From: Nemertoderma westbladi
Taxonomy: Eukaryota > Animalia > Xenacoelomorpha
Reading direction: 5' to 3'
Assembly (NCBI GenBank): GCA_032718475.1
Contig: JAUCBJ010002291.1
Span: forward strand, 1-64,000
DNA: 64,000 bases
Both the position numbers and the translations under genes were made by a program. Below are positions 19,081-44,838 of this stretch, one piece after another. Numbering within the stretch: position 1 is the stretch's first letter; each line of letters begins with the position of its first letter. The notes below the pieces were generated by a model. That model did no database searches and was not told the DNA's origin. It worked only from the letters and a program-made list of their open reading frames with translations.

Positions 19081-19713
19081 CGTGACGGGATCCACCGGAG
19101 TTGGCAGTAATGAATTCCGACCGGTGTGTGTTATACGCGTCGCCGCATCCGTAGGCTGCTAAAGGTGTAGTCTGGATCTATATAGTTTCCCGAAGGCCGT
19201 TCAAATAACTGAGTTTTACTGTCAGTGTTTATAATCGCAGAATGCAATAATAGCACAGTCTGAATATAATAGCACAGTAGTGACGACGGTTAAAACTGTT
19301 CCGGTCTCACAACTGCATAGGACCCAACTGAACCAGTAATCAATAACTGCAATGGTTATATTATTATTAACACATACTAAATTAGCTCTACACTACTGAG
19401 TGGCCTGAGTGTCCAATAGATGCGCTCTAATCACTCCCAATGTGCTCTCCCACCCACCATTGGCTTAACCTGATTAATTGTCACCTCGCCACTCAATGTT
19501 GCCACTATCCCCACGTGCTAGCCTTACTAGCCTGTTTGTCCCTCTAAGGTGGTTTGACCTCTCAACTCTCCCTGTGGCTTATTACGGCGTATATCGCCTT
19601 AGTTGGTTGTGAGGTGACAATATTATTGCTAATGTCACCTCGCCAACTATAATTGGTAAAATGCTACTAATCCCATTTTCGGTGGGTAGTGCAGGGAATT
19701 GAATCCGCTTACA
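19081..19713 (-). repeat. 3' LTR of element A
   Basis: Direct repeat of 29961-30586; begins TGTAAGCGG on the minus strand right after the PPT. Confidence 0.92.
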
Positions 19714-20402
19714 CTCCCCTCCATGATATATTCCCGGTGAGAAGATAGCATCAACCTTAAGTGCGCTTCAATTCCACCGGAATCCAATCTAATATTGGAT
19801 GTGGGGTGGAATTCTCTTCTCAGGGTTGGCTTTCCAGGTCGGCCCCCATGGGTTTGTTATCACTACCCATCCTTGGCACACCTGCGAGCTAGGCTGTACC
19901 AAGGCATCTGGCATCTCTGTTTTAATCGATTGCCCTCACTCCTCACACAATTTTACCTCTCGGACTTTGTTGTCCCTTCCTCTCTCGCCAGTCCCTTGGG
20001 ACTCATCCCCCTCTATGCTCGCTCCCCACACTTGAATCTCGCACCTCTTTTACTTCTTCATACCCTAACACCTCCTCCCCATACTCCTCCCATACTCGAC
20101 CCGTTTTCGCTGTCACTCTCCTCACACTCTTATCGGGTCCCACGCATGTGTACAGCATGTCAGTGAGATCCGTCGTTGTCCCGTCCTCCTGTTTCAGTCA
20201 ATTAGTCGCCAGTCCCAGTAGCTAATTGGAAAAGGTTATATTCGACTATGATAGGTCTATACTGATTATATATTGGGTATGTATATTGATTATTTTACGT
20301 ACGTACATACTAATTGCACTTAATTAAATTGCACTTAGGAGTTTGTACTGCTGCGTCCATGTGGTGCCTTCCAGGCACATTGACATCCCCTGTCTTGGAG
20401 TT

Positions 20403-23002
20403 CTACATTGCTCCTCCCGCACCCTCCGGGAACCATCTAATTTCCTTGCCCCTATCATCATCCTGTCTGGACCGCTTCCTCCCTTCCTGTTTACCCTTGA
20501 GGATACTCATCCTCGCTGATACCATCTTACCAAGCCCCATTGTTGGTTCTTTGGGTGTGGGTGTTATTAAGTCCTGGTATCTCTTCGAAGGTGGTCCCAC
20601 TGAGTGTCCCTCCTGTCTCCCTCTGGTAGCGTCCCACAAGATCATCTTCATCGCACGCGGCATGTGTTCCCCCAGAAAGTCCCTGAATTCGATCCTATTT
20701 TCTGTCCAGATATCTTTGGGTATGGATGACCCCTCTGTACAATGTCGCTGTTGCTACCTCCTGATACGTGAATGGTAGTCTCCTCTTGGTGATCTGCTGG
20801 TGGGCTTCTATATTGATGTTGAAGAAACCCCACCGGAATTACTGGGCCATCATCCTTTGTCGTGTCATGACTCCGATGTCGGCCCACACCTCGAAAATCT
20901 GGAATTTCTCCTCATCGTCCATCCTCAAAGTGCCCTCTAAACTTGCACTTCAAACATCTGTTGTGCAACCTCGGACACGCACCCTTCTTGTGAGTAGACT
21001 CGTGGCAGTAAAGACACGCCATCCCCTTCAGGAAACGGTATAGATAGTTCTTTTGCTGATGGGTTAATCTCCCACAGCAATCGCAACCGTGCATCATTGT
21101 CTCCCGCCCCAAGTCATCCTTGGCTCCGCGTGGCCTCCTGGGTCTATGGAGCCGCTGGTAGGTAAACATCTGGATGTTGTCTTCTCTATCCATGTCGATA
21201 TCCTATGCCAACCTCGGCATCGTTTCTCCAAACACTATTCATGGTGCCGTCCCCGGCTGCTCACCCAGTCTCTGGTACTCGCCGCAAAGTCCATGGCCGG
21301 CTCCCTGTGCTCCCAGGTCCTCTTACCGGGTTTCTCCCAGAAGGCTCTCGCCCCGGTGGCCGTCACCACTCTCCCATCCACCCAGTCTGTGTCTGAGTGG
21401 CCGATCCTTGCTATCGGTGGCATAGACCCGAACTCGTCATCTTCTTCTTCCCCTGCCGGGGGCGCAATCCCCTCTATCGGTGGCATCCCACGAACTCGTC
21501 CTCTTCCTCTTCCCCTGCCGGAGCGTATCCAAACCCAGGAGCCCAGTTAATCCACTGTGTAAGGGACACAGTGGATTAACTGGTATCCGCCCATAGCCTT
21601 TCACCCTTCTACCTCCCTCGGTCTCTTCCTTCTGATGTCACCCTCAGAGCCTGCTGGCATGGGCATTCTTTACAACCCCGATGTTGACTGTGTCGGTGTC
21701 TCTTACATCCAACCCATCGTCCCCCAGCCAAAACTCGTCCGAGGTCTCCGACAACCCATCGTCTAAGTCCTGGGCTTCGAACTCATACTCCTCTCCCCTT
21801 ATATCCGCTTCTCTGCCCGCTGCCTCCCTTCTCTCTCTCCTGGCGACTTCCACTAGTCTCCTCTCCTCAACCCTATCCACCTCCAGTTTCCTCCATGTGT
21901 CTACCTCTCTGTCCACTAGATGTCAGGTATTGTAATATACCGACTCGCCCTTCAGCCCTGGGTGGTCTACAAGACCTTCTAGGGCCACCTTAAAGGCTCT
22001 CCTGTGATTCGGAGGTGCTCCTGATAGTAGAAACGCCGTCGGCTCCCTGCCCATAAATAGTCACCATAATGAATAGGTTTAATAAATCTATGATTATCCA
22101 ATCCTCCTGTAGGATATATCTCTTCTGATATATCTTTATCGCTCCCTTCCGGAAGTGGTATAGTTTCTCCTTTCCTGGTCTCGCTCCCCACTTGAGCGAG
22201 TTCGCAAGTTCTGCTCCATATTCTTCCCGGAACTTGTTCCAGTCCATCGGCTTGTGGCAGACGAGTCCCATCAGTTTTCCCATTGCCACGGCTCCGCTAT
22301 TTCCCGTGTTGTCCACCAATCCCAATCCCTCTGGTTTTGTCATAGCCATGTAGACTACCTGCATGTCCAGAAGATTGGAGGTTCCAGGTCCAATAATTCT
22401 ATCCGCGTCGTTGCGTATCGCCGATCCCACCTTGATCATAGTTTTCTGTCTCACTAGCTCCTGCACCGCCTTCAGTAACCGGTTTAACTTCGGCCCGCTT
22501 TTCTTTCTGTAGGTCCCTAGGTCGAATAGAAAAATATCTCCGTTCGGCACTGCTAAGTGCAGCAATATAGTTCTACCTGATCCTCCCGACCCCCTTCTCG
22601 AGCCCTCGTCATCCTCCACAGTCCCTTCGTCGTTTAGGACCATGTATCCACCCCTCTCCACAGAATTTACAAATCGCCTCCACTCCTTAAACGGTGGTTC
22701 CCTCGGTAATTTGGTATCCCGAACTTTGCCTCGTCCCCCTTTACAACGTAGCGAAGATGCTCGTCGATCGCGTTGTCCAATGACGGTGTCCTGTAGGTCC
22801 CGACCATTCGCCGCTCGTGCATCTCCCTAAACTGATCCTGTAGCGCGTGCACTTTGTGACCCTTTGGGAGTGGTTTGTAGTATCCCTTCGTCTTTTTTTC
22901 CGGATGCCTCTGCATGAAATCCACTAGCAACTCCTTCCTACTCTTCTCCGATTTCCTCTTCTTCACTAGTTTCACCGCCATCACGAATCTGCACACTCTC
23001 AC
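20403..23002 (-). pseudogene. Element A accessory gene (frameshifted): DEDDy 3'-5' exonuclease-like domain, acidic linker, Cys/His zinc cluster
   Basis: GGYMVLNDEG (ExoI-like), ILLHLAVPNGDIFLFDL, VQELVRQKTMIKVGSAIRND...LLDMQ (ExoII), YQKRYILQED (ExoIII-like); then CDCCGRLTH...CLYCHESTHKKGACPRLHNRCLKCKFRGH...FEVWADIGVMTR. Lies between pol remnant and 3' LTR, same strand as gag. Confidence 0.75.
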
Positions 23003-23382
23003 CTAACTGGTGGGGCCTTAGAAAGGCTCAGTTTAAGTAAGAGGGTCGTCAAACAGAATGTTATTAGTTCCGATCAGTGATGGCCTACCTCCTTTGCTGT
23101 GTTTTCCTGTAATTTCGTACAAAATTGCATTTCTAAATTTACAATTTTGTCCATTGCTTTTTATTAATGATTCTAGAATTCATTCCCCAGTTGCCATAAT
23201 TTGTTAATTTTTACTATTATTTATATTCCCCCTTACATGTGCTATTATACTATCTGCCATCTGATTACTTACTTAAGTAACCCATCCCAGTAACAGTTTT
23301 CTTATTACCGTACTAGCTTCATACCAGACAGTTTCCTGGCTCTGTAACAATAACCTAGGTCTGCAGGGGCTAGCAGGCAACC

Positions 23383-23905
23383 TAGGCGCCCTCAGTGCCC
23401 ACAAGTTTATGGTACTGTGTACCCCTCTACTATGGTATGCATACATACCCCCTCTCAATTCCTCACGTGGCGCCCTCAGTGCCCACAAGTTTACGGTACT
23501 GTATAACCCTCTATTACGTTATGCATACCCCCCCTCAATTCCTCACATGGCGCCCTCAGTGCCCACAAGTTTACAGTACTATGTACCCCTCAACTACGGT
23601 ATGCGTACATACCCCCCCTCAACTCCTCACATGGCACCCTCAGTGCCCACAAGTTTACGGTACTGTGTACCTCTCAACTATGGTATGCGTACATACCCCC
23701 CTCAACTCCTCACGTGTCACCCTCAGTGCCTACAAGTTTATGGTACTGTGTATCCTTCTATTACGGTATGCGTACATACCCCCACTCAACTCCTCATGTG
23801 GTGCCCTCAGTGCCCAGAAGTTTATGGTAATGTACCCTTCTGCTATGGTATGCGTACATACCCCCCCTCAACTCCTCACGTGGTGCCCTCAGTGCCCACA
23901 AGTAC
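23383..23905. repeat. Tandem array, ~6 copies of ~83 bp, inside element A
   Basis: CTCAGTGCCC(ACAAG) recurs at ~23391, 23476, 23556, 23639, 23723, 23806, 23888. Confidence 0.93.
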
Positions 23906-24061
23906 TGCGTATGTAAATTAGGTATGTTGGTACATTATTGTACCCATCTGATGTATGTAATTGTAACTACATATACCTATTTATTATATACGTTGGTACA
24001 TCCGTACCCATCAGATGTACATAATGCCTACCTGCAGCGTACCTTGGTACTAGCGTTTTAC

Positions 24062-25700
24062 TTATTTTATTTTATTATTTTGTTTTTGTGGGAAGGGTGT
24101 ATCTCCCTCATTCCCACCCCCCTCAGTCCATCTTATTGGACGACTCAACAACCTAAGGGCGATTCTTCCAGCAGGCAACTCTCCCACTGCCCCCCTGTAG
24201 GTCCTAGGTCCTCTTATTCTTCGCCCCACTCTCCTTTTCGATTTCAAATCTCTTGGATCTGACTTTCCTTTCTCCTCCATCCTAAAATCGGGTCCGTCAC
24301 CTCACTGATCTCATCATGGTCCCCTGGCAGCAAAATGCTACCCTTCATCTTGTCGTCACTTGGTGGTAGAATGCCGCCCTTCATGTCATCCTCACTGGTA
24401 CATGCCACCTTTGCTGGCCTCCCCCTCAATATGTGCGCCGGCGTTAAAGCCCCCGATGACCCTTGGTAATCCTTCGGTACGCATAATGGTTTACCATTTA
24501 ATGCCCCCTCGCACTCTGCCAGCCCCATGTGCAACACGTCTCCTCTAACTTTCCTATCTCCATTACCACCCTTCATTATTAGCTCCTCTCCCTTTGGATT
24601 AACCCTCTTACATCCTCCCCCTCTCCACCTTGTCTTCTTATTCGACCTCCTCTCTATCGGTATGCTTCTTAATTAGACCAGCGTCTCTTCCAGACATCTC
24701 TCTGGATATCTCGCCATCCACTCTTCTCCATCCTCATACCGATACTTGCCAGGAACATCTATCTCCCATCCCATCGCCTCTAGGTCCTGTGCGTTGAACC
24801 CATTCTCCTCCGCCCACTCCCTTGCTGTGACTTGTCGTCCTGTCTCCTCTACCAACAGTACTTCTCTGGATTCATCCTCCACCCTTTCCACTATACGTGG
24901 ATGCAGATCCATACCCATCCCTGACTCCTGGTGTCCTTCCCCGGGCTGCTTCTCATATGGGACCTCCCCATCACCCATCTTTGACTTCTGCTCGGGCCAC
25001 TTCCCATATAGGACCTCCCCATCGCCCGTCTTTGACTTCTGTTCAGGCTGTTTCCCATATGGGACCTCCCCATCGCCCATCTTTGGTTTCTGCTCTATGT
25101 CCTCAACAGTACCGGACAGCATGCATCCAGATGTTTCGGATACGCCAAACGGTGTCCTCGTCTTCATTGGGCCAGTGAGCATCCACCCAAATGGCGCGAG
25201 AATGGCCATCGGGTCTCTCTCTCTGTCATCGCTGAAAATGGTTTGTAGTCTCTCGTGGGCCGTCGGACAGTCCATGCTGACTATTAGAGACACTTTTGGG
25301 ACATCCAGTTCCGGTACGGAAAAGTCGATGTCTTCCAGGTACTTGTATTGCTCAATCTCGATCTTCGTAGGTCACCTGGCGTTAATGTTGATTGACTCTA
25401 TTATCTGAATGGTTTCGATTGTAGCCCCATAGGTGCACCCTGGCTTTATCGCTGCAATCTCGCATCGTCCCCTCCTCATCTTCATGACCTCATCTTTGCT
25501 TGAGATCGTGGTCACTGCTATTTTACTTGGCCTGGTTCGTAATCCTATCTTCTCGCCACCCAACTCTCTGTTAGCGTGAATGCTGCTCCACTATCGACCA
25601 ACATTAGTGTTGTAACCGATAGCTCATTCTCCCCTATTATTCTCACTGGTACCACTCCAAGTAGTACCATTCCCCTCTTCTTTGCTCCCATTGTGCTTGT
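24062..25700 (-). pseudogene. pol: Element A collapsed pol: aspartic protease + integrase C-terminal remnant, RT/RNase H absent
   Basis: VVPVRI...LMLVDSGAAFTL; LIVSMDCP...AILAPFGWMLTGP; LAECEGALNGKPL...LTPAHILRG; LPAGRIAL. No RT or RNase H motifs between them. Confidence 0.75.
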
Positions 25701-28700
25701 CGCCATCGTCTGGCCTCCAGTCCCATCAGTCTCGTCATATTTTACCGGCGGTTCCTGGCACTCATCCTTCCTGTGTCCTCCTACCGCGCATCAATGACAT
25801 AGTCCATTCTTACCCGTATAGGCTACCCGATCTTGTTTAAGCAACGCCTGCCAGTGTTTACAACCGAACCTATGTAATTGGCATTTGTATTGGGGGTTGT
25901 AGCGTTCCTTGTATAGTGCTTCATGTATTGCGCTTAGATTCATATCTAGCGGTTTAGTGTTTTGGTTACTTGGACTCGCGGCCTGCTGAGAGTATTGGGT
26001 TTATATTTGTTTGTGTTGTTACTTTGCTTCTGTCCCTGCCACGGTGTGGCTCTACTTCCATCTCTCTGTGGACTAGAAGTCCCCTGCGTGGCCGCATACA
26101 GTAGCAACTGCCTCACCTTCGGAAGTACATTTGCCGCCCTATGTTCGGGTTTGGGTTGGCTGTATTCGGTTTTTGGTGCCTTTCCTAGACTGTCCTCACT
26201 ATAGACTGGATCTGTTATTAACTCCACCTCGTAGTTAAGGAAGTTCGACATCTCCTCCAACCCTGGCTCCGCACCTTTCTTTTCTCGGGGCGATTCGGCC
26301 CACCCACTATATTTTTGTAATTGTCCAATGAAATCCTACAAAATTTGGGCTGTTGGTGAAACAACTATAGATGATGACTACCAAACCTTAAAAAGTTAAA
26401 ATTTCATAATTTTGATGAAAAATAAAAGTATTCCCAGGACAAAATTACAAAATTTTTCGTTTTCTAAAAACTAATAGTGTGGCAGTGTTGGCTAGATTTA
26501 GTAGGTTTTTCAAGACGCTTACATAGTTGCATACAAGCTTACATACTTGTATAGAGCATTAGAGTGATCCAAACCAATAAAAATAAATAAAAATAGCCCA
26601 AACATAAATAATTACTAAATCACGAATGACTTTGTAAAATTCGAAAATTTCAAAAAATTTGGTGCTGGAGACCAAATTTTGAGGTGGCACCCACATCGAA
26701 AAGTAGAAATTCAATTACAACATCGTTTTTTGCAAAAGATGCGGCATTAAATTTGGCTAATTCTCAATAAAAATTGGGCCGGTACGTAATGTGGTTGCAT
26801 AGTTACAGCAACTAAAAACTAGGAAGGGGCCGTTTTTGGTTGTGTATATTGCGGATACTGTAGTGGGGGAATGTCACCCTGTCCCCTCCCTCCCCCCACC
26901 GATGTTATGTTTGGTACTGAGGTTGATGTCATTATATTCGGGCCCATACACCTATCTGCAATACCCCCCCCTCCCCTGGATATATATTGTATCCATGCAT
27001 GTTACAGTCATACTGATGTGCAGGTACCAGTATAGGCCTATCAGGTTCTTGCCTACTAACTGGTATGTATGCCGCAATCTCCGGGTCCAATCCCGGCATC
27101 CGTACTACCCTATTGCCTACACTATCTCTTCCAGCATGGCCTATAGTATGTGCAGTAAGGCCTACAGTATGTCCTGCAGTCTGCCTGTGTCCTTCCGGAT
27201 CGAAGTTTAATCTTCTTGAATATTCCAAGAACTCCTCCCCGCGACTACCATATCCTCGATTGGTAGCTACATTCCAACGGAAGTTTCCCTCCAATCCCCT
27301 CTTCTGTCTTCTTCCTCGTACCGGTACACTCTGTACCCCTCTCCCGGTGTGTGGTATATTTTGCCAGGTTGTGTTTCTCCGGGTGACAGCAATCTCCCAA
27401 AGTATGACCCCACCGGCTCTCTCTCTCTCTCTCCACTTCGACTATCGACGGTTCGCTGTCCGTCCTTTCTCTCTGGTTGCCCGTAGCAACACTTCCTCGT
27501 CCCTCCTCACTTCTTTTGATTTCAGCATAATGTCCTCCTTCATGAGATCTCGTATCGACCTCCTGGATGAACTCCACTGTTCTTCTTCCGCCTTCCGAGT
27601 GGGCTCGATGTTTCCTCGTTTGGCCGCGCACCAATGTCCCTCCCTCTGCCCGGTTGGACATCCCCGTGGATATTCGCAGTCCTCTTATTATCATCTGTCA
27701 TCGGGTGCCACGGTTCATTTATCTCACCGCGTGCATTATCTGCCGACGCTCCTGGGGCCTCTGTTGCCCCCCCCCCCCCCCCTTTCATCCGTCGTCGGGT
27801 GCCACGGTTCACTTAACTCACCGCGCGCATTATCTGCCGACGCTCGTGGGGCGTTTGTTGCCCCCCACCCCCCCCCCCCCTTTCCTCCATCTTCGGGTGC
27901 CACAGTCCACTTAACTCACCGCGTGCATTATCTGCCGACGCTCATGGGGCGTTTTTTGACCCCCCCCCCTCTCGTCATTAATTGGTTGGTGTGGGGTGCC
28001 CATAGCCCCCACCCCCCACCCCGTCACCTCTTATCTCGCCCTCATGCCCATGTTCCCCTCCAGTCGACACATTAGTTCTATCTTCACTGGGTTTATTTAG
28101 CCGAGTTCCTCCCTGCGCAACTGCGTGGCTTTGTAGGCCTTCTCTAGGCATATTGCCTGTTTCCCCTACGTTTATATTAATTGTACCGCCACTAGCTTCA
28201 CCCTGTTGATTTATAACGTCGTTATTTAGGTTATATTGATTAATCTCGCCGGGATTATTTATTATATTATTATTTGACGTACCCGGATTGTTATTTAAAT
28301 TATTCAAATTATTTTGTTCACTGATATTTACATTATTATTTAAATTATTTTGTTCACTGTTATTAAAATTATTACATAAATTATTTTGTTCACCGTTATT
28401 AAAATTATTACCAAGTAAAATATTATTTCCTGCAAGAAGACTAACGGAAGACTACGGTACTATTAATATTAACGTTTTCACCAAAAGTATTATCATTACC
28501 CCCCCCCCCCCCCCCCCCCCCCGCCCGTACGGTCACACCAGTCTTGGGTCTGTCGTCCGGTACCTGTAAGTGGGGTATTAATAAAGGTTTCCATCACCTC
28601 TGGTTCCTCATAAATACTTCCCGAACCAGCCTCGCTCTCTGATAAACCCATTTTTGCCAGTTCTAATCGGCGCTTTTGCTTCGCCTGATACTGCATTAAC

Positions 28701-29866
28701 CCCTCAACCGGGTATGCATATCATCCCCCATTCGTTTACCCGCCCTCTCTCTCTCTCTCTCTCCTCTCTAACACTCTGGTCGGCTAACTCTGCCTCTCTC
28801 GCCTCTCGTTCTCTACGCTCGTTCACTTCTCTCTCAATCCTCTCAGCTTTCCTCGCTTCCCACTCTTTGCGCTCATTCTCTTCTCTCTCAATCCTCTCAG
28901 CTTTCCTTGCTTCCTGCTCTCTGCGCGTGTTCTCTCCCCTCGCCTCTTGTTCTTTGCGCTCACTCAATTCTCTCTCCTCCCGCTCTCTGTAGTTTCTCGC
29001 CACCCTCTCGGCCCTCTCTTTACACTCTTTCGCTAGTTCCCTCTCCCTCTCTAGTAACGCGGTCCCCTCATCCAGCTGTCTCTCTAATTCCTTTTGATCC
29101 AGTGCGACAATGTCTAGTTGACACGCCAGATCTATCTCTAACACCCTTCTTGCTTTCGCAGAGGATGTAGCGGACTTTTCGGTTGCGACGCACTCCCGTC
29201 GCCTGCTCATCCTACTAATTTTCATGTGCTTACTGGGATTCCTACTAACTGACGACACTGAATCTTCGGGGTTGACCTCGGATTCGGTGTCGTGCGGGTC
29301 TGCCCATCCCACTAACTTAATCCCCCTCGCATCTACTAGATAAGGCCATACGTACACCACACTGGCCTCCACCACCTCGGATCGCCACAATTCGAACAGT
29401 TCTGTGGCGACCCCCCTCGTCTTCTCACTTGCTAGTTCCCCCTACCCAAATCGGACTAGGTAGCTAAAATGTTTTTTGCACTCACCTAGCCTCTGGTACA
29501 ACTTGGGCTGGTCTACCTTTCTTCCCTCTCTAGCGTCCTTCAACAACCTCCTGGTGGCAGTGTACCCTCGTTGTAGGTGATCGCTCATCCCGACGTCTTC
29601 CTCCTGGACTTGGCCTTCCCTCCTCGTCCAGCGCCGTACCGTTAGCCCCACCATTGCCGTTCCGGTGGGCCGTTCGCCGCCCTCAGCCACTGGTTGACTG
29701 GTGACTTTGGTACCTCGTTTGCCGCTGTGATCTCGCATCGACTCGCTCTCCTCTCTTCCTCGTCCCTTGTTGGCGAATCCAGTATGGCGGGCCGGTACTG
29801 CCTCGTCGCTGCTTCCCGAATCGTCTCATTTCTGTCACTCGGGATTCGCATCTTGTGTCCGCTCAT
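25700..29866 (-). pseudogene. gag: Element A gag, fragmented
   Basis: E/R-rich coiled coil (28704-29390), Asn- and Gly-rich low-complexity tracts, BEL motif FLNYEVELITDPVYS (25946-26260), degenerate knuckles CQLH.../LCH*CAVGGHRKDEC. Confidence 0.72.
26295..26830. mobile_element. AT-rich DNA-repeat fragment inside element A gag
   Basis: Sharp GC drop; AAAATTTGGTGCTGG...AAATTTT...CGAAAA motif shared with the 50590-51290 repeat family. Confidence 0.6.
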
Positions 29867-29960
29867 GTTGGCGTCATTGTGGTCACAGTTCCTTTAGGTT
29901 GTTGGGTTGTTGGTAGTTTTAACTCGGCAGTTTTAACTGTGAGTTGATTGGCGTTTTAAC

Positions 29961-30586
29961 TGTGACGGGATCCACTGGAGTTGGCAGTAATGAATCTCGA
30001 CCGGTGTGTGTTATACACATCACCGCGTAGGCTGCTAAAGGTGTAGTCTGGATCTATATAGTAGGCCGAAGGCTGTTCAAATAACTGAGTTTTACTGTCA
30101 GTGTTTATAATCGCAGAACATAATAATAGCACAGTCTGAATATAATAGCACGGTAGTGACGACGGTTAAAACTGTTCCGGTCTGACAACTGTATAGGAAC
30201 CAACTGAACTAGTAATCAATAACTGCAACGGTTATATTATTATTAACACATACTAAATTAGCTCTACACTACTGAGTGGCCTGAGTGTCCAATAGATGCG
30301 CTCTAATCACTCCCAATGTTCTCTCCCACTCACCATTAGCTTAACCTGATTAATTGTCACCTCGCCACTCCCTGTTGCCACTATTCCCACGTGCTAGCCT
30401 TACTAGCCAGTTTGTCCCTCTGAGGTGGTTTGACCTCTCAACTCTCCCTGTGGCATACGGCGTATATCGCCTTAGTTGGTTGTGAGGTGACATTATTATT
30501 GCTATTGTCACCTCGCCAACTATAATTGGTAAAATGCCACTAATCCCATTTTCGGTGGGTAGTGCAGGGAATTGAATCCGCTTACA
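29961..30586 (-). repeat. 5' LTR of element A
   Basis: Minus strand TGTAAGC...CGTCACA; direct repeat of 19081-19713; gag starts ~100 nt downstream. Confidence 0.92.
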
Positions 30587-32185: not shown

Positions 32186-33081
32186 TGACGCATATTTGCA
32201 TCACTGACTCATTTTGGTAAACTGCCATTTGTAGGTTTTCAGTGACGCATATATGCGTCACGATTAAATTTTTCTTTGACACATAAACACAACCTATTTT
32301 ATGATTTTATAACACTCAAAGTGAATGAAATGACGGACAGGCAGCTGATAGAAATTAACCGTATCCTACCGGTACTGCTGCACTGTCTGACTTTATCGAA
32401 TATTAATACGAAAATATAATATCGTTCAACTACACACAATATTATGTTTGCGAATTAGCGTGATGCTAAAATTTTAACGAAATTAACCATTTTTCAGCAC
32501 AAAATTAGATATTTCAACAAAAATTTAACAACTTCCTTGGAATAATATTTTTTCTATCTTTGGTCATTTATAGAACATGTTAGTAGAAAAAAATAGACAT
32601 ATTCCGAAATTTTCAAGAGTTGCCCGAACCTGGTCAATTTTGTGGTCAAATCTGGATTACGTTGTATAGCAGTAATACTACGTATGGCTCTTCGGGGAGT
32701 GAGAATAATTTAAACGTTAATAACTCCAGTTCAACTGTGCCGTTTTAACTGTAACAAACACCGATGGAAAGACAATAAAATTATCTGTTGGATTATATGC
32801 TACAACCTGTAAAAAGATTTTAATGTATGTGATGCAAATAGTTACGAATATTTGAACATAGTGATTGCAATGTGAAATATTTAAGAGAAACTCGGCCATT
32901 TATATATTATTCTGTGTAATGTACAGTAGACCTAATGTTTATTATAACATGGCTGAGGTGATCTTCAATTACTTTGGTTACATTTTGTCACTTTACTGAT
33001 CTGATAATCCATTGCGATGGTAAATAAAAACAGTGATCAATTAATACTTGCCTGGAATAATAATTACACGCCTACTGATAG

Positions 33082-33526
33082 TTGCTTTATTGCGGCCTAC
33101 TGATGTTGCTTTATTGCGGCCTACTTAAAATATTTGCTTTATTGCGGCCTACTTAAAATATTTGCTTTATTGCGGCCTACTTAAAATATTTGCTTTATTG
33201 CGGCCTACTTAAAATATTTGCTTTATTGCGGCCTACTTAAAATATTTGCTTTATTGCGGCCTAATTAAAATATTTGCTTTATTGCGGCCTACTTAAGATA
33301 TTTGCTTTATTGCGGCCTACTTAAAATATTTGCTTTATTGGGGCCTACTTAAAATATTTGCTTTATTGCGGCCTACTTAAATTATTTGCTTTATTGCGGC
33401 CTACATAAAATATTTGCTTTATTGCGGCCTACTTAAGATATTTGCTTTATTGCGGCCTACTTAAAATATTTGCTTTATTGGGGCCTACTTAAAATATTTG
33501 CTTTATTGCGGCCTACTTAAGATATT
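33082..33526. repeat. 28 bp tandem array, left arm (~16 copies), split by element B
   Basis: Unit TTTGCTTTATTGCGGCCTACTTAAAATA; continues in register after 44838. Confidence 0.96.
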
Positions 33527-34804
33527 TGTAAAAGCTTTTGCGGAATTGCCCGGTTATTTTTCCCCGTAAAGTACTCTGTAGTTGGTTTAGCAGGCATAAA
33601 AGGCCGTGTCATTGCTGTACCGGTGTTTTTAGGGGACATAAAAGCTATTTCTTCTGTATGTGTACTTTAGAGGACATAATTAGCAATTCTATGACGCAAC
33701 GCCCTAGATCCTCTTGAAACAGTGTCGTTACTATGACGACAGCTAACGGCTGAGCTTTACATGTGTAGCTTGCCCGGAGCCTTGCTTGGTTCTTTGTTCT
33801 GCTCAGCTCAAAATGACGACATCTATCAGCTGTGTCCACTTGGAGCTTTTTGCCATTCGACCAATCAGAGATTCCCTCTTTGTGTAAAAGCTGTACAGCA
33901 GAATTACAGGATTCAGTACTGACGTTTCCCCCACGCCTAGAACACCGGCCGGGGAATGTTTTCTGACATTAGAGCGTCTTTAATTATAAGATCATCAAAC
34001 GGTTATCTCGGTTTTGCACCTCGGTCTTGGTCAACTCGGTTAACTCGGTACTGACTACAGCACCACGGTTTTGCACCTCGGCATATGATTAAGCACCCTG
34101 ACGTAAACTGCTTTTCGCCGCATTATTTACTGCTATTTACTGTGTTGTTAATTGTATCGTTCGTTTACATATTATTATTGGGAAGAATATTGATAACGAT
34201 CCAAAAACCCAATCATCTTGATACACTAAGGTTAGAGAGACCGGTTACATATAACAATTTGCGACATACATTATCGTGGTTTGTAGTGAGTTCAATGCTA
34301 CTTAATAGGCCCTACAAATGTCGGTTGTTATTCTCTTTATATATGATTAAAATCAGTGAATGTCGGCAATTCAGTGTGCAGTTGTGTGCAATAGTTTGCG
34401 TGTGCTTGACCGAGTAACAAAGCATTTCCTAAAGAATGCACTTTGGTGATCTATAAGACATACCGTTGTGTATAGTGTAAGTCATAGCTCTGTTTAAATA
34501 GATAGAGCGCCACGTCCTAAAGGAACTGCTAATATTTCCCAAAAGGTGAATAATATTTGTCAGAGATTATATATTAACGATCAATCGAATAGTACGGTAG
34601 GCCTGCACCGCAATCAAATTAAAGCATCCAAATCCAGTCTCCCGGGTATATCCATCGGGTGAATGGTCGCGCACAGACTGGCTTTGGCTAATGTTAGAAT
34701 TATTATAGGTGTTCAATACTTGTCATAGGCTGGAGTAGATTTATAACCTAGAAGACATATAGATTTGGCGGGTTAAACTGCCAAAGGTCTTAAAAGCGCG
34801 AACA
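33527..34804 (+). repeat. 5' LTR of element B (1278 bp)
   Basis: Starts TGTAAAAGC, ends GCGAACA; contains CCAATCAG (33861) and TAATTATAAG (33981). Confidence 0.95.
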
Positions 34805-37054
34805 ATAACCGTTTGCTAAATTATTGATTGCAGTGTAGGCAATAAATACAGTTTAATATTGTTCTGGTAAGAACAATAACCGTTTGTAGGATCTTGATTG
34901 CGGCGTAAGCGATCAAGACTAAAGTACCGGTCGACCGGTAACCAGTAGGCCTGACTGCCTGATCATCCGGACTGGTACTTACAACAGTACAGGTACAGCA
35001 GTATTATTCGATTTTGATAATTATATACCGGTAGGTCTTGATATTAAATCGGGGACTGCAGCCCTGGTTTTTTATTGGGATTTTTACTTATTTCTGTCAG
35101 TTTTATTTACTAGTAGGCTAATATTGAGCAGAAGGCGTGTAACCCTGCTCAGATTGTTCAGATAATTGTAGGCTGGACTGTTGTCTGACTGTTGATTGGG
35201 TCTGGAGAGATTGCGGCGTGTGTAGAGTCTTTCCGATAAAGTGCCAGTTAGTAAGTTGGGGCATCTTGAGTTGGAAGGTCAACCCCCTCCTAAAGAATAA
35301 GTCGTACTACCGTGTTAGAACGCATACTAACTAACCATTTTGGAATCTGCATATACTGTAGTTTATTTAGGCTTGATAGTAGTCTGCCAGCGTTTTAGCC
35401 TGTGTTTGTTTGTGTGGTCTGTTCAGGTACCGTAATAGTTATTATTCAGATATTTTGTAGGCTGGATTGTTGTCTGGCTGTTATTAGGTCTGAAGGGATT
35501 GCTGTGTGTGTAGAGTGTCTGTCCGATAAAGTGACGGTTAGGAAGTAGGGGCAGCCAGAGCTGTAAGGTAAATCCCCACCTAAAGAATAAGTCGTACTAC
35601 TAGGTTAGAACGCATACTAACTAACTATTTCGGAATCTGCACATACTGTAATTTATTTAGGCTTGATGGTAGTCTGCCAGCATTTGGTTTGTAATTTGTT
35701 TGAGTAGTTTGTACGGGTAGCGTAATATTTATTATTCAGAGTTTATGCGATTATTCGCAACATTCATATCCCTAAGTTTATTCCTACAGTAATTGTGCTT
35801 GTTATATATACCGTTATAGTTAAATTAACCCCGGTACTACACGGGCTGCTTGGCGTAGGTAAAGACTGGTGATCTTGTGCACTGGTCACTCCAGCAGATG
35901 CCGTGGTTCTTTTAGCTGTTCAAGTATTTTTTAACTACTGATTATTTGTTGTACAAGTACTTGTACCTAATTTAGGGTTTAGTGTACAGTGCTTTCCGAG
36001 GGTAATTAGTGTGTAGGCAGTATATTTGTGTTGTAAAGTAATTAATAGGCACGTTGGTTCTGGTAGACCGCGGTAATTAACTTCTAGGTAGGGACACTCC
36101 GTGATACATAACGTAGTACCTATAGCGATACGGCTATAGGTCGTCAGACGGTGGTATTTTCCTATCTGGACAACACAGTGTATTTACTACTACTTATTAT
36201 TTTCAAATACCGTAGTATCCTGTCCGTTGTAATAACCAGAAAATCTAACACTCTGTTAGACTGGTTTGTAGTTCCCTGTAAAATTACCCTAAAATTTCGT
36301 ACGTAATATTTTTGTTGTGTTTAATTAGAGATTTAATCTCACCCGTATCGTAAGTAATTCGTAGATAAGTAACTTAGGAAGTAGAATTATTTGTTTTAAT
36401 GTCCAATAAGTAGCACTTCACTGAGAACGCACAGCCTTTGTGTAGTGACTACTTCCCAGAAATAATAACATCTATTTCAATATTGTAACAAAACCCCTCA
36501 TACGGGTATATATAAATCCACTAAATCTATTAATAAAATAGTAGGCCTGTTATACAACACTTAGGTCTTAATATCAGTTGGACTGCTGCTCAAATAACGG
36601 TAATAAAGTAAGTAAAGTAACCAAGTAACCCCTAACATTCAGAAATTCAATTATTTTTAAAATAATTGACATACCGGTATTTACAATAGGCTTATTATAT
36701 TTATTCTATAAATTTAGGCTGAAATCATACCGGTATTCTGTAATTAATTATAGTCTGTAATAATTATACTTATATATAATATAAGTGTCAGCTGTATACC
36801 GGTATTCACGATAGGCCTATTATATATTTATATATATTTGTGCTAAAATTATATACCGGTATTCTGTGACAAATCTAGTCTGTAATAATACTTATATATC
36901 TACTAAAAGCATACCGGTATTCTAGTATATTATATATATCACGCTACACTGAGTAGCAGTATCGGTAATTAATTATTAGGCTAACAGTGATACTGAATTA
37001 CTAGACTTGCTTTAACTGTAATATAGCAGTAGGCATTCAACTGTACAAACAAAC

Positions 37055-40000
37055 ATGTCAGACGCAACCCAATCACTGTTAGATAGTCTCTTAGAAAGTG
37101 TTAGAATGAGTATTAGACTTAGACAGCGTATTAAAAGGATCTGTGACCAAGATCAAAGTATAGAACATCCTAGATCCAAGTCTAAGTCACCTACTATTGT
37201 AAGAAAGGCCATCCCTACAGTAGTAGTGTCAGACCCTAGGCTAGTAGAACAGCGTAGGTCTATCATCGGCACTCGGGCCCAAGTCAAGCGGGATCAAGAA
37301 GCAGCTATCAAACAGCAGCAACCTCCTAGCCAAGAACCTAGTTCTCAGCGGCCCGATAGCTCCAGTAGTTCGGATACTGTTGAGCGGACGCCCGAACACG
37401 GAGCGAAGATGGCAGATACGGTTTATGATGAGCGGCCAACCTTTGAAGAATCAACCGACGCCACTTCTTCTCAAGAAGAAAGCGAAGTGACAGCGGGGGA
37501 GCCGCGAAAGAGAGACGCTATTGATATTTATCTGTCAGACTATCAGCGATTCCTAGGAGACGAAGAGTTGAGGAGACGACTGTCTGGACTTCGCCCTAAT
37601 AGTGAAGGAACCAAGCTTGTGTTGGACGCAATCGATGCGGAAATGTTAGCTGCGAACCAAGCTGAATTTGATGAAAAACTCCGCCTCGCTAGAGTCCAGG
37701 AAGAACAAGTAAAGAAAAGACGGATAGAGGACCGAAAGGCAGCAGCAGTAGCAGAGGCAAGGGCAGTGGCAGAAGCAGAACGGAGAGCGTCTGAGGAGAC
37801 TACCCAACTGGAGTTGGAAAATCTGCAAGAGACGCAAGACAACATAAATAAACAATTAACTGCTAGTCAAATGCAGATGATGAGTCGATCTACTCCCAAA
37901 CGCCAAGAATACACATCATCGGAAGAAGGCGAGACCACCGATCCTGAAGGCGGAGGAAATAGATCTCGTCTAAGTAGGCGTAGAAAAACATCTCATCGTC
38001 ACAAATTGCCTGATTTGCCCCCAGCGGTTAGAAGACAACTAGCTAGCACAGACTTAGGTAATACAGAACCCACAGACCAAATTATTAAGGTCAAAAGACT
38101 CCCTACGATAGTTGATGAGCCTGAAATAATTAGGCCTGTCGTTCCCAAAGCCACTCCTGTGCTAGAGACCCCTGTACTTCCAGAGCTTAACTCTAAATCC
38201 CCTTTACACAGTACTACACTGCCTGTACCCGGTAGAACAGTCCATGAGAATATCCCTGTCCTGGACGCTGAGAGAGAAATCAAAGATTTGTCTCCCGTCG
38301 TCCCGCGTCTGCCCGCTACAATGTTGGCGACTCCCGCTTCGGCGGTCGAGTGGGTAGAGGAGGGACGGCGGGGGATGAATCTCCTGCTCGGACAGATGCA
38401 GGAGACTGTCCACCAACTCAAGGGAACATTAAGGGAAAGTAGGGTAGAATTGCAAGAAGTGCAGCAAAGCATCGCGCTAGAACGCGACAAATTAGTCAAT
38501 ATACAAAAGGGTATACCAATACCCCCTGTAACATTGTGTCAACCTGTTAGGTCTGAAGTATTACATGCGCAAGGTGTGGAGCCTATACGCATCTATACTG
38601 CTAGTGAAGTAGAAACTCCTATAGCAAACCCTATTAAGGGTGATTATAAACCTGTTGTTGATGATATTCCCTATAGACCTGATAATAATCCGGGAAATTT
38701 ATATACCGATAATTCGATATTAAATAACACGATGGCCCAAGAAAGCTTTACGCGTCAGATGGCTAGAACAGAAGCCCGCCAAGCGGTCAAAGTGGGAGAA
38801 ATCGTCAAATTCAATGGAGATGAGATGAAAATGGTTACCTTTTAATGAATATTACAAAGATAGCATACAGAACTCTGTACTATCTAACGGAGAGAAACTT
38901 AGATTCCTCATCGAGTGTTTGGAAGGACCTCCCAAGTTAATGGCGTTAAAGTTTATTGGACATCCAGATGGATTAAGACAAGTTTGGGATACATTAAACA
39001 TCAGGTATGGTAACAAGGATAACATAGCTAAGTATTTGTATGCAAAATTAGTAGCCCCCCGAAAGTTCCTTAGTAACGGGATTATAGAGTTTTCCGATGA
39101 GATTCAGGAGATCTGTAGACAATTGGATTGGTTAGGTAAGTCTCATGAATATCAGAGTTCCATGGTTATTGGAGCCGTAGTCTCTACTTTACCAAAGGGT
39201 GGAGTATGTACACGCTGGGACAAGAAAGTGTTGTATATGAATGACCAGCAACGACGAGGCCCTACCATGGCTGATCTCATGTCCTTCTTAGATAGTGAAG
39301 TAAAATTACAACTCATAAAGCAGTCCAGAGAGAAAACATCGGAAAATAAGGTAAGTGAGAAACCCGTTTCTAGGAGAAGGGTAACACCAGTGTGTTATAC
39401 TGACGACGGCGAAAGCCAAGTCTCTCAGGAAGAGGACAGCGGGAAAGACACAGCAAAATCTTACTATGATAACAAGACCTATAAAGACGTAAGTAAATAT
39501 AAGTCTCGAACCAGGGACAGAAGAGAACAGGTAACAACAACTCCTCCTACGTCTCCTAAGAGAATTCAAGGAAGAAAGCCCGAAGAAAGAACGAGAGTGC
39601 ATAACGTTGCCCCAGGTAAAGTGAGTAACATCAAACCAAAATGTGCGCTGTGCGACGGGCCCCACCGTTTGAGTGTGTGTGCTGAATTCCTAAAGAAATC
39701 CCTGGTAGACAGACGTGAAGTCATGTGGGATAAGCGGTTATGCTATAATTGCCTCAGACAAGGACACCAACGGCGAACCTGTTACTCCGACGTAAGGTGT
39801 GCAAAGTGCGGTGCGAAATATCACATCTTGTTACACAGTGAATTCGAACGAAACAACCCGAGTCAGGTAAGTGAGCCCGAACTACATGTCCAATTCAGTG
39901 ATGTAAATGACACTGATCAAGAATCTGAGATGGAAGGATTCTATACGGACGAATTCTCCGACGCCAACGAATCCTGTTACCTAATAAATACCGCAGTGTA

Positions 40001-40667
40001 TCGAGCACTTACGTATGAAAAGGACACCGACAATGAGTTCCCCCCAACTACCTTTGACAGACAACCATCTTGGAAACCTCCAACTTCCAACGTAGGAATC
40101 AGAGAATTTCCTGTGGTGCAGGTAAGAGTTCACGGTCCTAACAAAAGTTACATAGTGAACGCCCTCCTTGACTCCGGCAGCACAGGAACATTCATCGATC
40201 AAGAACTAGCCGAAGACATATTTGCTGGACAACCCAAATTCCGAACTAAGTTGAATATGTCAGGAATTATGCAGGTGAAATCTACCATAACGGCAGATTA
40301 CTATGTAGGTGTGTTGTCCACCCCCCAGGATAAATTAGGAGAACAAAGTATAAGGTCAGTAAAAATGGTGGCTATAAAGAACTTCGCTACTACCCAAGTA
40401 GAACCTTATAACTGGGACGAGGACGAGAGCATCCAGCAGCTTAAGATACCTCGATTCCACACAGATTATCCTGGAGTGCAAATACTCATCGGCCAAAACG
40501 CGCATGAGGCGCTAGAGACATTGGAGAACAGCGGAGAAAGTAACACAACAACTCAATCGCCCAGCTGGTCGTTTATGTTTACTGGAAAGAGACCGAAAAC
40601 TGTCCGGAAACTATGGAAGGCAAGATACTCTTCCTACGACCACTTCCCTAATCCGACAAATATCTAG
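37055..40667 (+). pseudogene. gag: Element B gag-protease (frameshift near 38845), fused by deletion to the integrase C-terminus
   Basis: Coiled coil; IVKFNGD...EKLRFLIECLEGPP (DUF1759-like); CALCDGPHRLSVC, CYNCLRQGHQRRTC, CAKCGAKYHILLH; ALLDSGSTGTFI; ILIGQN; then, in another frame at ~40530-40590, TAEKVTQQLNRPAGRLCLLE (BEL integrase end). Confidence 0.9.
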
Positions 40668-42258
40668 GGACTCCATAACGTAATAACATATGGAGTGGGC
40701 GTGTGACTATATCATTTTATATTTGTTTTTATTTTATATTTATGTATGTATTATTATGTAATTTTATTATAATCGTTTTCTTTAATTTTATTTAGTAGAA
40801 TGTTATTTTAGTGATTATTTAGTAGATTAGTGCAATATATTAGTGTTTATTACGTACGTAATTACTTATAATATATATTTAGTGCGACGGCGAGAAATAA
40901 TTATTTTTTCTCTTTCCTTACTGTCCGTATCATATTATAAATACATGACTACAGTAAGATGAAATGTCCGTACTTATTAAAGTACAATAAAGCCACTACT
41001 ACATTCAAGTATTATTGGTAGGCAGAGTATTAGGAATGCAAAGTTCAGATCCTCGTGTCTCGGCTAAACCAAGCTCTGGGTAGACCTTGGAAACGACTTG
41101 CCTCTTCACACTGACATTGCTTTGTGCGATATTACGCTCATACCATATATAATAATACATATAGTAGTGTGATGTCCCTCTAACAGTAGCGTGAAACGCA
41201 AATAAATCTGTTAAACCTTTTGACCATCTGTAATTCTAGTCGATTAAGATATCGCGGCACCCACCGATATACTTGAAAGACAAATTCTAGAATCAGTGGT
41301 TAACGTCCCCAGACAAGTTCTGGAATAAATTGGTGCCCATCTCAAATATTAATTATTTAATATTTATAAATCTATAAATCAAAATCTGTAAAATTCAGAT
41401 CCTTTAACAATTCTAGTCGATTAAGATATCGTAGCCCTTACCGATACTCTTAAAAGACAATTTTCATAGAATTAAGGATCCTATGTCCCCAGACCTGCTC
41501 TGGAATCAAATTGTGTCAATTGCACTATCAAATAATAAAATTTCAGGGAATAAATTTGAATTCATATTTTAATGAATTTAATAAATTGTCATTCTGTGCA
41601 ATTTATAACATTCCCAAAATTCCATTAATTAATAGATCATGGGAGCGGAGATTCATCCTATTGAGTGTATTAGAGTGCGAGAATCTCCAACATATAGTCA
41701 ATAGCCGATAAAATTTATAAAATCATATATAAACGAGATATTGGACCATTAAAGAATTACTATTAAATAGCATCCCAGATCTGTATGCATTGGAATTACC
41801 CTAATTCTACCGCTAGCTTTCCATAATGTCACCATAGTAACACCCACGCTAGAATTAGAAACAAGTTAAAAGGAACAATAAAAACTTGCCCATTACATAG
41901 AGTAAGAAATAAATAGCGCACTGCTAGTATCCAAGGATACATAATAATAACGTGGCATTCTGGAAGGCACTGACTAACGGACAAATGGCCCGAGTGTGTG
42001 CAATCAATTTGTGACAGTTGTGTGTGTGGAGTTTGTGAGTTTATAGGCGAATGTTACTACTAAAGTGTGTTTACAGTAGCGAGTCGCAATTGTGAAAGTA
42101 ACCCTAACTCTCCAGTAAGAACCTGAAGTGAATCTAAGCCTTTGGGACGGACAGTGGAGTGACTCGTGCTAGCGTCGTTGTCGTTGTGTAGCTACACGTT
42201 GGCGGAAAACACAGCGACGACGATACATTTGCGCTGAGCATCTTACACTGTCCGGGGG

Positions 42259-42310
42259 CTGATTGGGGTAGGCAGCGACGCTCGCTAGCCTAATTATAAG
42301 CTCATTATAA
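42259..42310 (+). promoter_or_regulatory. Putative internal promoter of accessory gene B (inverted CCAAT, GACGCTCGC, TATA)
   Basis: CTGATTGG...GACGCTCGC...TAATTATAAGCTCAT; last 15 nt match LTR 33981-33995 at 14/15; layout shared with element C. Confidence 0.5.
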
Positions 42311-42345
42311 TATTAATAAACTCATATATAGCAGATATAACGGAG

Positions 42346-43623
42346 TTGATAGAAGATGGTCTTGGTATCGGGGAGCGATATACTCTACCTTTACAAGTGT
42401 TTGTTGATAGTTTGATACGCGGCGACGCTAGTCCAACTACTACGGAGGACGATGGTCGTTATATCGAACCGACGATTTCCTCGAAGCAACTTACGCGTGA
42501 ATTGGACTATGGAAAATTCGCCGCTCGCTATACGCATCGTAATAGTACGTATATGGACTTCTTAACCATTGGCCATTCTATCGATTCACACGATACGGAC
42601 TATGTCGAACATATATCCTACCCAGCGGAGTCGGAACGATAAACTGAAATTCGAATGCGAAAATTCTATTCGAAATCGACTCGAAAGAAAAGACATTAGA
42701 GAGATAAATGGACGCGGTAACTCTAACGTATATTTGGAATTCTTGATAGAAGCATTGTAACAACAAATAAATATCATCCGCGTTTCCCCTACCAGACATG
42801 CGTCTTTGGTATTATTACGATAAATGCCCTAGACCCAACTAATAAACGGAAAGACATAAACATCCATGGAAACCGAAACTTGTTCGACATATCACCTACG
42901 CTCGCTCGACTCAGACGATCCTTGAGTAAACCCACGATCATAGTTCCGGAATACTCGGTCAGACCACCTCGTTCCTTGATTAGACCTCAGACTTTCGATT
43001 CTGATGGTATCCCGGATCCTCACGAGCTGTATTCACTGTTCAAAGATCTAGTGCTACCCTAACAATTAATCGGTAACACTCCGGCAGCGAGCTCTAGCTA
43101 GCCGCCCATCTTACCTAGCCGTATTGGGACGCGGACACCTAATATCACCATTCAACCATATGGTCGTCCCAGTTTAATGCGATACAACCCTTCATCAAGG
43201 TGAAGGAGAGCGTTGTACGAAACGAGTTAAACGCTATTCTACAAAGATCAGAAAGGAAACCTGCGTTTGTTCAGATAAACGTAAGTTATAACAGCAAGTC
43301 CAAGCGGTAAACGAATTGGCTTTATCTCAGTTCGATTGGGAAATCTTGAATCTCTAAGAAGATATCGAGCTTAGACAACCCTATTCTCTGCGAGAGTTTT
43401 GGACGAGCGTGTCCAACGACAAGCGGAGGAAAATCAGCTCGAGGAGAAGCAGATCGAAATGGACGAGACACTGACCGTAACCCTAAACCTTCTGATGCAA
43501 TTGTATTGCACTCTTCACCCAGGAGTTATAGCCCTCCTAGTAAAGTGGCTCGCTCCAAAGAGAAAAAGACTCTTGCTAGTCTCAAGAAACTGCGTAAACG
43601 CCGTCCGCGCAAGAAAAACTAAC
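42346..43623 (+). pseudogene. Element B accessory gene, internally deleted (N-domain + basic C-terminus only)
   Basis: DGRYIE...YGKFAARYTHRNSTYMDFLT vs C: SGNYIE...YHEFILKYTERDGSYNSFLT; KPTIIVPEYS...LYSLFKDLV vs C: KPMIHVPEFS...LYFRDLV; ends KKLRKRRPRKKN*. Confidence 0.68.
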
Positions 43624-43699
43624 TGTTTAGAGTATCTTTATATTTTAGAAACTGTGATTTTTATATTTTATAGACTAAAATCCCATTTTCTGGGAGCGG

Positions 43700-44838
43700 T
43701 GTAAAAGCTTTTGCGGAATTGCCCGGTTATTTTTCCCCGTAAAGTACTCTGTAGTTGGTTTAGCAGGCATAAAAGGCCGTGTCATTGCTGTACCGGTGTT
43801 TTTAGGGGACATAAAAGCTATTTCTTCTGTATGTGTACTTTAGAGGACATAATTAGCAATTCTATGACGCAACGCCCTAGATCCTCTTGAAACAGTGTCG
43901 TTACTATGACGACAGCTAACGGCTGAGCTTTACATGTGTAGCTTGCCCGGAGCCTTGCCTTGGTTCTTTGTTCTGCTCAGCTCAAAATGACGACATCTAT
44001 CAGCTGTGTCCACTTGGAGCTTTTTGCCATTCGATGGTTATCTCGGTTTTGCACCTCGGTCTTGGTCAACTCGGTTAACTCGGTACTGACTACAGCACCA
44101 CGGTTTTGCACCTCGGCATATGATTAAGCACCCTGACGTAAACTGCTTTTCGCCGCATTATTTACTGCTATTTACTGTGTTGTTAATTGTATCGTTCGTT
44201 TACATATTATTATTGGGAAGAATATTGATAACGATCCAAAAACCCAATCTTCTTGAACACTAAGGTTAGAGAGACCGGTTACATATAACAATTTGCGACA
44301 TACATTATCGTGGTTTGTAGTGAGTTCAATGCTACTTAATAGGCCCTACAAATGTCGGTTGTTATTCTCTTTATATATGATTAAAATCAGTGAATGTCGG
44401 CAATTCAGTGTGCAGTTGTGTGCAATAGTCTGCGTGTGCTTGACCGAGTAACAAAGCATTTCCTAAAGAATGCACTTTGGTGATCTATAAGACATACCGT
44501 TGTGTATAGTGTAAGTCATAGCTCTGTTTAAATAGATAGAGCGCCACGTCCTAAAGGAACTGCTAATATTTCCCAAAAGGTGAATAATATTTGTCAGAGA
44601 TTATATATTAACGATCAATCGAATAGTACGGTAGGCCTGCACCGCAATCAAATTAAACCATCCAAATCCAGTCTCCCGGGTATATCCAGCGGGTGAATGG
44701 TCGCGCACAGACTGGCTTTGGCTAATGTTAGAATTATTATAGGTGTTCAATACTTGTCATAGGCTGGAGTAGATTTATAACCTAGAAGACATATAGATTT
44801 GGCGGGTTAAACTGCCAAAGGTCTTAAAAGCGCGAACA
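43700..44838 (+). repeat. 3' LTR of element B (1139 bp, lacks ~139 bp)
   Basis: Nearly identical to the 5' LTR except for loss of ~33861-33999. Confidence 0.95.

Follow-up and report, generated by a model that had tools for sequence, protein, structure and literature searches.

How does a long terminal repeat (LTR) retrotransposon start its minus-strand DNA when no site for a tRNA follows its 5' LTR? This question is raised by a 64,000-nt stretch of DNA from Nemertoderma westbladi (GenBank assembly GCA_032718475.1, contig JAUCBJ010002291.1, positions 1 to 64,000 of the forward strand; hereafter, the window), which carries two elements of the BEL/Pao type, referred to here as B and A. Judging from the sequence, element B, which has no tRNA site, likely primes its minus-strand DNA with an LTR-derived segment of its own RNA, a reading to which we assign a probability of about 0.65.

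The junction following the 5' LTR of element B

The 5' LTR boundary of element B was set by the 3' LTR together with the 5-bp target site duplication (TSD) ATATT. It had been claimed in the original prediction that the 11 nt lying directly after this boundary, ATAACCGTTTG, do not start with TGG and are the exact reverse complement of a segment of the LTR, CAAACGGTTAT, that the 3' end of this segment faces the first post-LTR base, and that the junction consisting of GAACA and the 11-mer recurs at 34871-34886: all these statements agree with our re-reading of the sequence. T34006 stands opposite A34805, the first base past the terminal CA, in the priming register, and the pairing is bounded on both sides, C34007/A34804 and T33995/C34816 being unpaired. 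The reverse complement of ATAACCGTTTG occurs a single time in the window, at 33996-34006. In dinucleotide shuffles of LTR B, a complement of at least 11 nt was obtained 13 times out of 20,000 at offset 0 and 41 times out of 20,000 at offsets 0-5; an empirical null based on 17,912 window positions gave 0.29%, a value which is inflated because of the repeats in the window. Between positions -50 and +150 relative to the end of LTR B, TGG is present only at -38 and +61.

The junction belongs to a 71-nt tandem duplication (units 34800-34870 and 34871-34941). GAACA and the 11-mer are identical in the two units, 32 of the 56 columns beyond them are alike (57%), and the identical block and the LTR complement share the base at which they stop. 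Each primer-binding site (PBS) copy is followed by a hairpin with a 7-nt loop, in which one A-U pair of the first copy is replaced by a C-G pair in the second; the hairpin is weak after copy 1 and strong after copy 2 (z -4.5, 0 of 200 shuffles). Three sub-threshold matches were obtained with Rfam, none of them within the leader. The second GAACA plus 11-mer is likely to be a spare end-plus-primer cassette, and the present copy of B appears to have been made from the first cassette, because its 3' LTR ends there. A strong splice donor-like sequence, CTG/GTAAGA, is located at 34868 between the PBS copies; it may be a major donor, in which case PBS copy 1 alone would remain in the spliced RNA.

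Other copies of the family were found in X1, a single sequencing run in the form of contigs, possibly derived from DNA, in which a fraction of 0.18 of the words is present. The X1 contigs, which give neither the transcript start nor the strand, cover 29 of the 30 bins of element B with 80-100% likeness, and the B family is therefore multi-copy; the uncovered bin (33905-34282) is uninformative either way. One X1 contig, read by eye, carries a single unit composed of ATAAC, then different letters, then a 9-bp form of the hairpin. This variant suggests that the hairpin is kept in the family while the site changes past its fifth base, which fits a site rewritten from the subfamily's own LTR. A further family-B copy is represented at window positions 4-91 by an 88-nt piece 92% alike to the B gag (38521-38608), ended by a LINE reverse transcriptase (RT) fragment.

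In terms of its coding content, element B is best described as a young non-autonomous derivative of BEL/Pao and not as a full member. Apart from one gap, 4 substitutions and 2 one-base indels separate the two LTRs, with 1 further altered base where the deletion is joined, and the insertion is therefore young; it cut a 28-bp satellite array in two (33073-33526 and 44839-45155). The gag ATG (37055) is preceded by a leader of 2.2 kb. The second open reading frame (ORF) matches DUF1759 (PF03564, E 1e-10, above the Pfam cut-off), the protease shows a DSG motif (PF13650, E 0.003, below the cut-off), and three Cys-His knuckles were read from the translation of gag. The longer relatives of B were BEL/Pao polyproteins in 25 out of 25 cases, combining DUF1759 with PF05380 or PF18701. 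No RT, RNase H, or integrase was detected in B by tblastn with 42 long relatives, the matches being confined to 38886-40571. Among the features of BEL/Pao, B therefore has the gag, the protease, and the TG..CA LTRs with TSD and polypurine tract (PPT), and lacks both the RT-RNase H-integrase in gypsy order and the tRNA PBS. The ORFs at 41454-43704 have no match in Pfam. The stretch of about 3 kb between the protease and the PPT (40668-43699) is AT-rich, and the short ORFs at 42289-43704, which X1 contigs cover, are possibly a broken accessory gene. No close relative of B is on record (best E 5e-27); in viral contigs, none was found in one search, and a second search gave one locus without a usable 5' end.

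The gap in the LTR alignment corresponds to about 139 nt of the 5' LTR. It deprives the 3' LTR of the CCAAT box and of the initial part of the 11-mer at 33996-34006, although the shortened 3' LTR retains a 9-nt pairing including two G-U pairs. That these 139 nt were inserted into the 5' LTR was judged unlikely, because a perfect CCAAT would then have to be completed at one joint and the match extended from 6 to 11 nt at the other, and because there is no flanking duplication. The stretch missing from the 3' LTR also includes, at 33883-33931, a diverged internal copy of the first 40 nt of the LTR.

Table 1. Positions of the features of elements B and A in the window.
Feature	Position	Strand	Remarks
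Element B	33527-44838	+	TG..CA LTRs, TSD ATATT; from self-comparison of the window
5' LTR of element B	33527..34804	+	1278 nt, TG...CA, 3' end GAACA (34804)
3' LTR of element B	43700..44838	+	Direct repeat of the 5' LTR
TSD ATATT, 5 bp	33522..33526 (left), 44839-44843 (right)	+	Within the 28-bp satellite
Non-tRNA PBS, copy 1, ATAACCGTTTG	34805..34815	+	Flush with LTR end
Candidate self-primer CAAACGGTTAT	33996..34006	+	First of four CGGTT repeats in 34000-34070
About 139 nt of the 5' LTR absent from the 3' LTR	about 33860..33999	+	From LTR alignment; not mentioned in the original prediction
Candidate upstream promoter (predicted)	33859..33918	+	Perfect CCAAT 33859, TGTAAAAG 33883, initiator (Inr)-like TCAGTA, +1 at 33915
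Perfect TATAWAWR match TATATATG	34338..34345	+	Rival promoter downstream of the candidate primer; motif scan
Predicted U5 hairpin	34761..34790	+	Ends 14 nt before LTR end; z -2.2; 6/200 shuffles
Hairpin after PBS copy 1	34822..34848	+	Weak, z -0.8
9-bp hairpin over second GAACA and first 3 nt of PBS copy 2	34857..34878	+	5' arm could alternatively pair across junction 1
Second unit of the 71-nt tandem duplication	34871..34941	+	GAACA, PBS copy 2 (34876-34886), 10-bp hairpin 34892-34918
gag and protease, two overlapping ORFs	37022..40667 (37022-38845, 38829-40667)	+	Frame broken at the overlap
PPT GGGAGCGG	43692..43699	+	Adjoins the 3' LTR
Element A	19081..30586	-	Older, non-autonomous, BEL/Pao-type; LTRs 30586-29961 and 19713-19081
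Post-LTR region of element A	29915..29960	-	GTTAAAAC three times, TCACA ahead of the first two, no TGG
Candidate self-primer of element A, CAGTTTTAAC	30165..30174	-	LTR complement of its own junctions

Element A and the tRNA-primed control elements

Element A repeats the layout of B (a repeated junction without TGG, and a complement of this junction in its own LTR) with other letters. Its LTRs are 94% alike, its TSD is GTTTA/GTTGA (4/5), and its protease is of the BEL/Pao type (tblastn, E 7e-9). The candidate primer CAGTTTTAAC pairs over 8 nt at junction 1 (273 of 20,000 shuffles), over 10 nt at junction 2, and over 9 nt at the third copy. Both LTRs of A carry TATAACC at 30236 with a perfect TCAGTT 31 nt further on, a combination of which about 0.1 hits would be expected; the predicted +1 is 30205, and the candidate primer would therefore lie at +32..+41, within the RNA. 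No similarity between A and B was detectable in the LTRs, nor in the proteins via the relative of A at 59 kb.

In element A, the gag and protease are directly joined to a remnant of the integrase C-terminus, which is followed by an 80-84-nt tandem array and a 278-aa ORF (21990-22826). This ORF has no match in Pfam or the PDB; by eye, it may resemble a 3'-5' exonuclease fold. The relative of A just mentioned is an LTR-less fragment (59063-60910, + strand) of a family with about 80% likeness to A; it shares the deletion running from the protease to the integrase tail, and this deleted form has therefore spread as a family. In a zinc-knuckle/protease tree (91 of 171 rows), the branches are long and neither B nor the relative of A falls into a clade, the nearest group of B including an element of the TGG type (L073).

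Control elements were collected using an alignment of 21 BEL/Pao polyproteins, which yielded 80 loci, or 81 with one added from viral contigs, and 54 of these were examined. The TGG motif was present in 29 of the 54, most of the remainder being cut short. Among the 29 LTR pairs read, the 21 whose 5' LTR end was clean served as controls, 19 of them coming from one assembly; eight pairs were excluded for unclear ends (six with a TGG site, L041 with a decayed site, and L044 with none). In all 21 controls, TGG lies 0-5 nt after the 5' LTR, and the best LTR complement among them is 5 nt long when only offset 0 is considered and 7 nt long when offsets 0-5 are. Twenty loci, most of them without the TGG motif, were re-read, and no readable non-tRNA junction was found among them. 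At most control loci (e.g., L010, L013, L014, and L019), the TGG site matches the tRNA-Tyr(GUA) 3' end given in the available portion of PMC13524379, and not the tRNA-Arg or -Gly of the profile published by the International Committee on Taxonomy of Viruses (ICTV; PMC8742986). The tRNA scan found no tRNA genes in the window, and one in 36 loci, which was not used as evidence.

The absence of TGG might also mean that priming at the site of B depends on a trans-acting host RNA without a terminal CCA, be it a half or a fragment of a tRNA or a small RNA of some other kind, the match with the LTR being secondary. In copia lineages, priming by half-tRNAs is known (PMC6317226, in excerpt), and the fact that the site is constant in both tandem copies is to be expected of any primer site. 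A trans primer should, however, keep the site constant throughout the family, whereas the X1 variant differs past ATAAC, and it leaves unexplained both the end base shared by the conserved block and the LTR complement and the match of A with its own LTR. GGTTAT is furthermore present in none of the tRNA 3'-end 12-mers given in the available part of the supplement to PMC13524379, a comparison bearing on 3' ends only. Priming in trans by a host RNA seems unlikely in the light of these data.

Proposed priming in cis: transcript start, pairing, and other readings

If element B primes in cis, the transcript would start no further downstream than 33996, a position near 33915 being the most likely, and the segment would be inside the RNA. 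In the particle, where the RT would be supplied by an autonomous relative, the segment would anneal to the site located about 800 nt downstream, a step which would need the help of a protein, since the helix is not favoured by free folding. An RNase H-type cut 3' of U34006, as in Tf1 of Schizosaccharomyces pombe, would free a 3'-OH, from which the RT would copy U5 beginning with the terminal CA, without any spacer. Since plus-strand synthesis would copy the attached primer, the site would be rewritten from the LTR in every cycle, which would explain both the perfect match and the differences in letters between families. To serve in this way, the primer would need only to be transcribed, and not to form the 5' end of the RNA. 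A primer built by splicing was rejected: among all the GT/GC..AG pairs at least 40 nt apart, the best joint gave 7 nt in B (11 unspliced) and 6, 10, and 9 nt in A (8, 10, and 9 unspliced).

The tRNA-independent priming put forward in the original prediction is upheld in part. Priming by an LTR-matched segment is the best reading in view of the controls, the edge of the tandem block, and element A. It is also favoured by the cores of the LTRs, each LTR being rich in the one that fits its own site: CGGTT occurs 7 times in LTR B versus 0.8 expected, and CAGTT 5 times in LTR A versus 0.8, without any enrichment of the opposite core. The strict version, in which the primer consists of the first 11 nt of the transcript as in Tf1, is probably wrong, as no promoter motif sets +1 at 33996 and the segment of element A is predicted to lie at +32..+41. 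The TATA-like motif at 33985 named in the original prediction, 11 nt ahead of the segment, is weak: with two mismatches to TATAWAWR, it falls outside the set of 13 LTR sites that have no more than one. The predicted +1 of the upstream promoter, 33915, would place the candidate primer segment of B at +82, inside the RNA.

Several points weigh against priming in cis. As regards the transcript start, the upstream TATA candidate TGTAAAAG has one mismatch and, rather than a TATA box, may be an old duplicate of the beginning of the LTR, and three pairs of TATA and Inr are seen in LTR B versus 0.8 expected by chance. Starts directed by the TATA at 34338 (+1 near 34368) or by the motif at 33985, if used (+1 near 34015), would leave the segment outside the RNA, and an R+U5 of at least 800 nt is long. 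As regards the pairing, the energy of the B duplex is only -12.7 kcal/mol; when the whole leader was folded, the probability of the junction-1 helix was about 0 in 8 of 8 choices of start and end, and the junction-2 helix formed only with starts at 33990-33996 (2 of 5 tested), although folding across 900 nt is unreliable. For the first 3 nt of the site, there is competition from an arm of a local hairpin. The first junction of A pairs over just 8 nt, the LTR partner of the X1 variant is unseen, so that this variant may be a break rather than a covariation, and the shuffle values exaggerate the surprise, the junction having been selected from many windows. Lastly, no autonomous partner was found for B, which has no RT of its own, the best matches being 20-48% identical over parts.

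The match might instead be a by-product of repeated protein-binding motifs (CGGTTA, CAGTTR), an inverted copy of which in the leader matches by chance extension, priming being due to something unrecognised here. These motifs resemble Myb-type sites (YAACNG). CNGTTR is frequent, with 7 occurrences in LTR B versus 3.0 expected (33 of 1000 shuffles) and 5 in LTR A versus 1.3 (12 of 1000), i.e., 5.5 and 8.0 per kb, respectively, the figure for the 21 control LTRs being 1.7 per kb, and the perfect TATA at 34338 would turn the repeats into U3 enhancer sites. Even when these cores are granted, however, the chance of an extension to the observed length is 0.0025 in B and 0.006 at the second junction of A, and protein-binding motifs leave unexplained, in both elements, the loss of TGG and the position flush with the LTR end. 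We hold this explanation to be about as improbable as priming in trans.

The pairing might, lastly, be real but structural, closing the 5' leader so as to allow packaging or dimerisation or to control translation, without being cut into a primer; the leader region is rich in conserved hairpins, and a start at 33996 gives a helix at junction 2 and not at the junction which defined the LTR end of this copy, but a structural role would leave two integrated elements without a primer site, and the duplex ends on the first base past the terminal CA, the very register required for priming, and it is the least probable of the three alternatives.

Priming in cis could be extended to a wider picture, which is tentative and which we would rather doubt than accept as it stands: a BEL/Pao lineage without tRNA priming, in which the primer would be cut from the interior of the transcript, 30-90 nt from the cap and up to 800 nt from the site. 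The site and primer would be rewritten together, giving each family a private primer, and the tandem cassettes consisting of an LTR end plus a site would provide alternative starts. In that case, each of the three LTR superfamilies would have seen an origin of self-priming.

Comparison with known self-priming and tRNA-primed elements

The replication of BEL/Pao elements has hardly been studied. Cer7, a BEL/Pao element of Caenorhabditis elegans, has reportedly been proposed to encode a primer RNA of its own in place of a host tRNA, which would set a precedent in this superfamily for independence from tRNA; this primer is said to be a separate tRNA-like segment close to the element's 3' end, and not an LTR fold-back. 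If B does prime in cis, self-priming would extend to a third LTR superfamily and, beyond the chromoviruses, to an animal lineage. tRNA fragments aimed at primer sites silence mammalian elements; elements such as B would be independent of this PBS-targeting type of silencing as well as of the host tRNA supply. Annotation tools requiring a tRNA site would overlook or misjudge such elements.

No published case of self-priming in BEL/Pao was found in a literature search, most subscription papers and Repbase reports being outside its reach, and the available portions of PMC3118150 and PMC554778 make no mention of a PBS or tRNA. In BEL/Pao (Belpaoviridae, Semotivirus), tRNA priming is assumed, and the ICTV profile gives an 18-nt site for tRNA-Arg or -Gly and LTRs of 0.2-1.2 kb (PMC8742986). 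Element B shares with canonical members the DUF1759 gag, the triple Cys-His knuckle, the DSG protease, the TG..CA LTRs, and a short PPT; it differs from them in having no tRNA site, no RT, RNase H, or integrase, and an LTR slightly longer than the ICTV range.

In the original prediction, self-priming was described as known only from the Tf1/sushi group, which is too narrow a view, given that it has been predicted for Tcn1 and for the plant copia TAR lineage (PMC6317226, in excerpt). In the TAR lineage (Houba, Osr-1), the criterion used was a complement of at least 10 nt starting 0-5 nt after the LTR (excerpt of the same paper): the complement of B has this length and position, unlike that of the first junction of A. 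TAR elements belong, however, to another superfamily (Ty1/copia) and another kingdom than B.

The closest parallel is with Tf1, which has no tRNA site and in which an 11-nt site is complementary to a segment of the 5' LTR (excerpts of PMC7175516 and PMC4600332), RNase H cutting between bases 11 and 12 (PMC7175516, in excerpt). Like Tf1 and Tf2 of S. pombe, Tj1 of S. japonicus, the Tf1/sushi group, and Tcn1, B is without a tRNA site and has an LTR-complementary 11-mer, and the site of B begins with ATAAC, as does that of Tf1 (PMC11042837, in excerpt). Membership of B in the Tf1/sushi clade (Ty3/gypsy chromovirus) was ruled out, the relatives of its gag-protease being BEL/Pao. In contrast with the Tf1 group, B has a BEL/Pao and not a gypsy gag-protease, about 800 nt between the pairing partners, a tandem junction, and no RT of its own, and it is known from its sequence alone. 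The primer of B is more likely to be internal than to consist of the first 11 nt; an internal primer would set B apart from Tf1, and gives a sharp prediction, namely an RNA end at one named base. Element B thus appears to represent a variant of a known self-priming mechanism, in a superfamily regarded as tRNA-primed.

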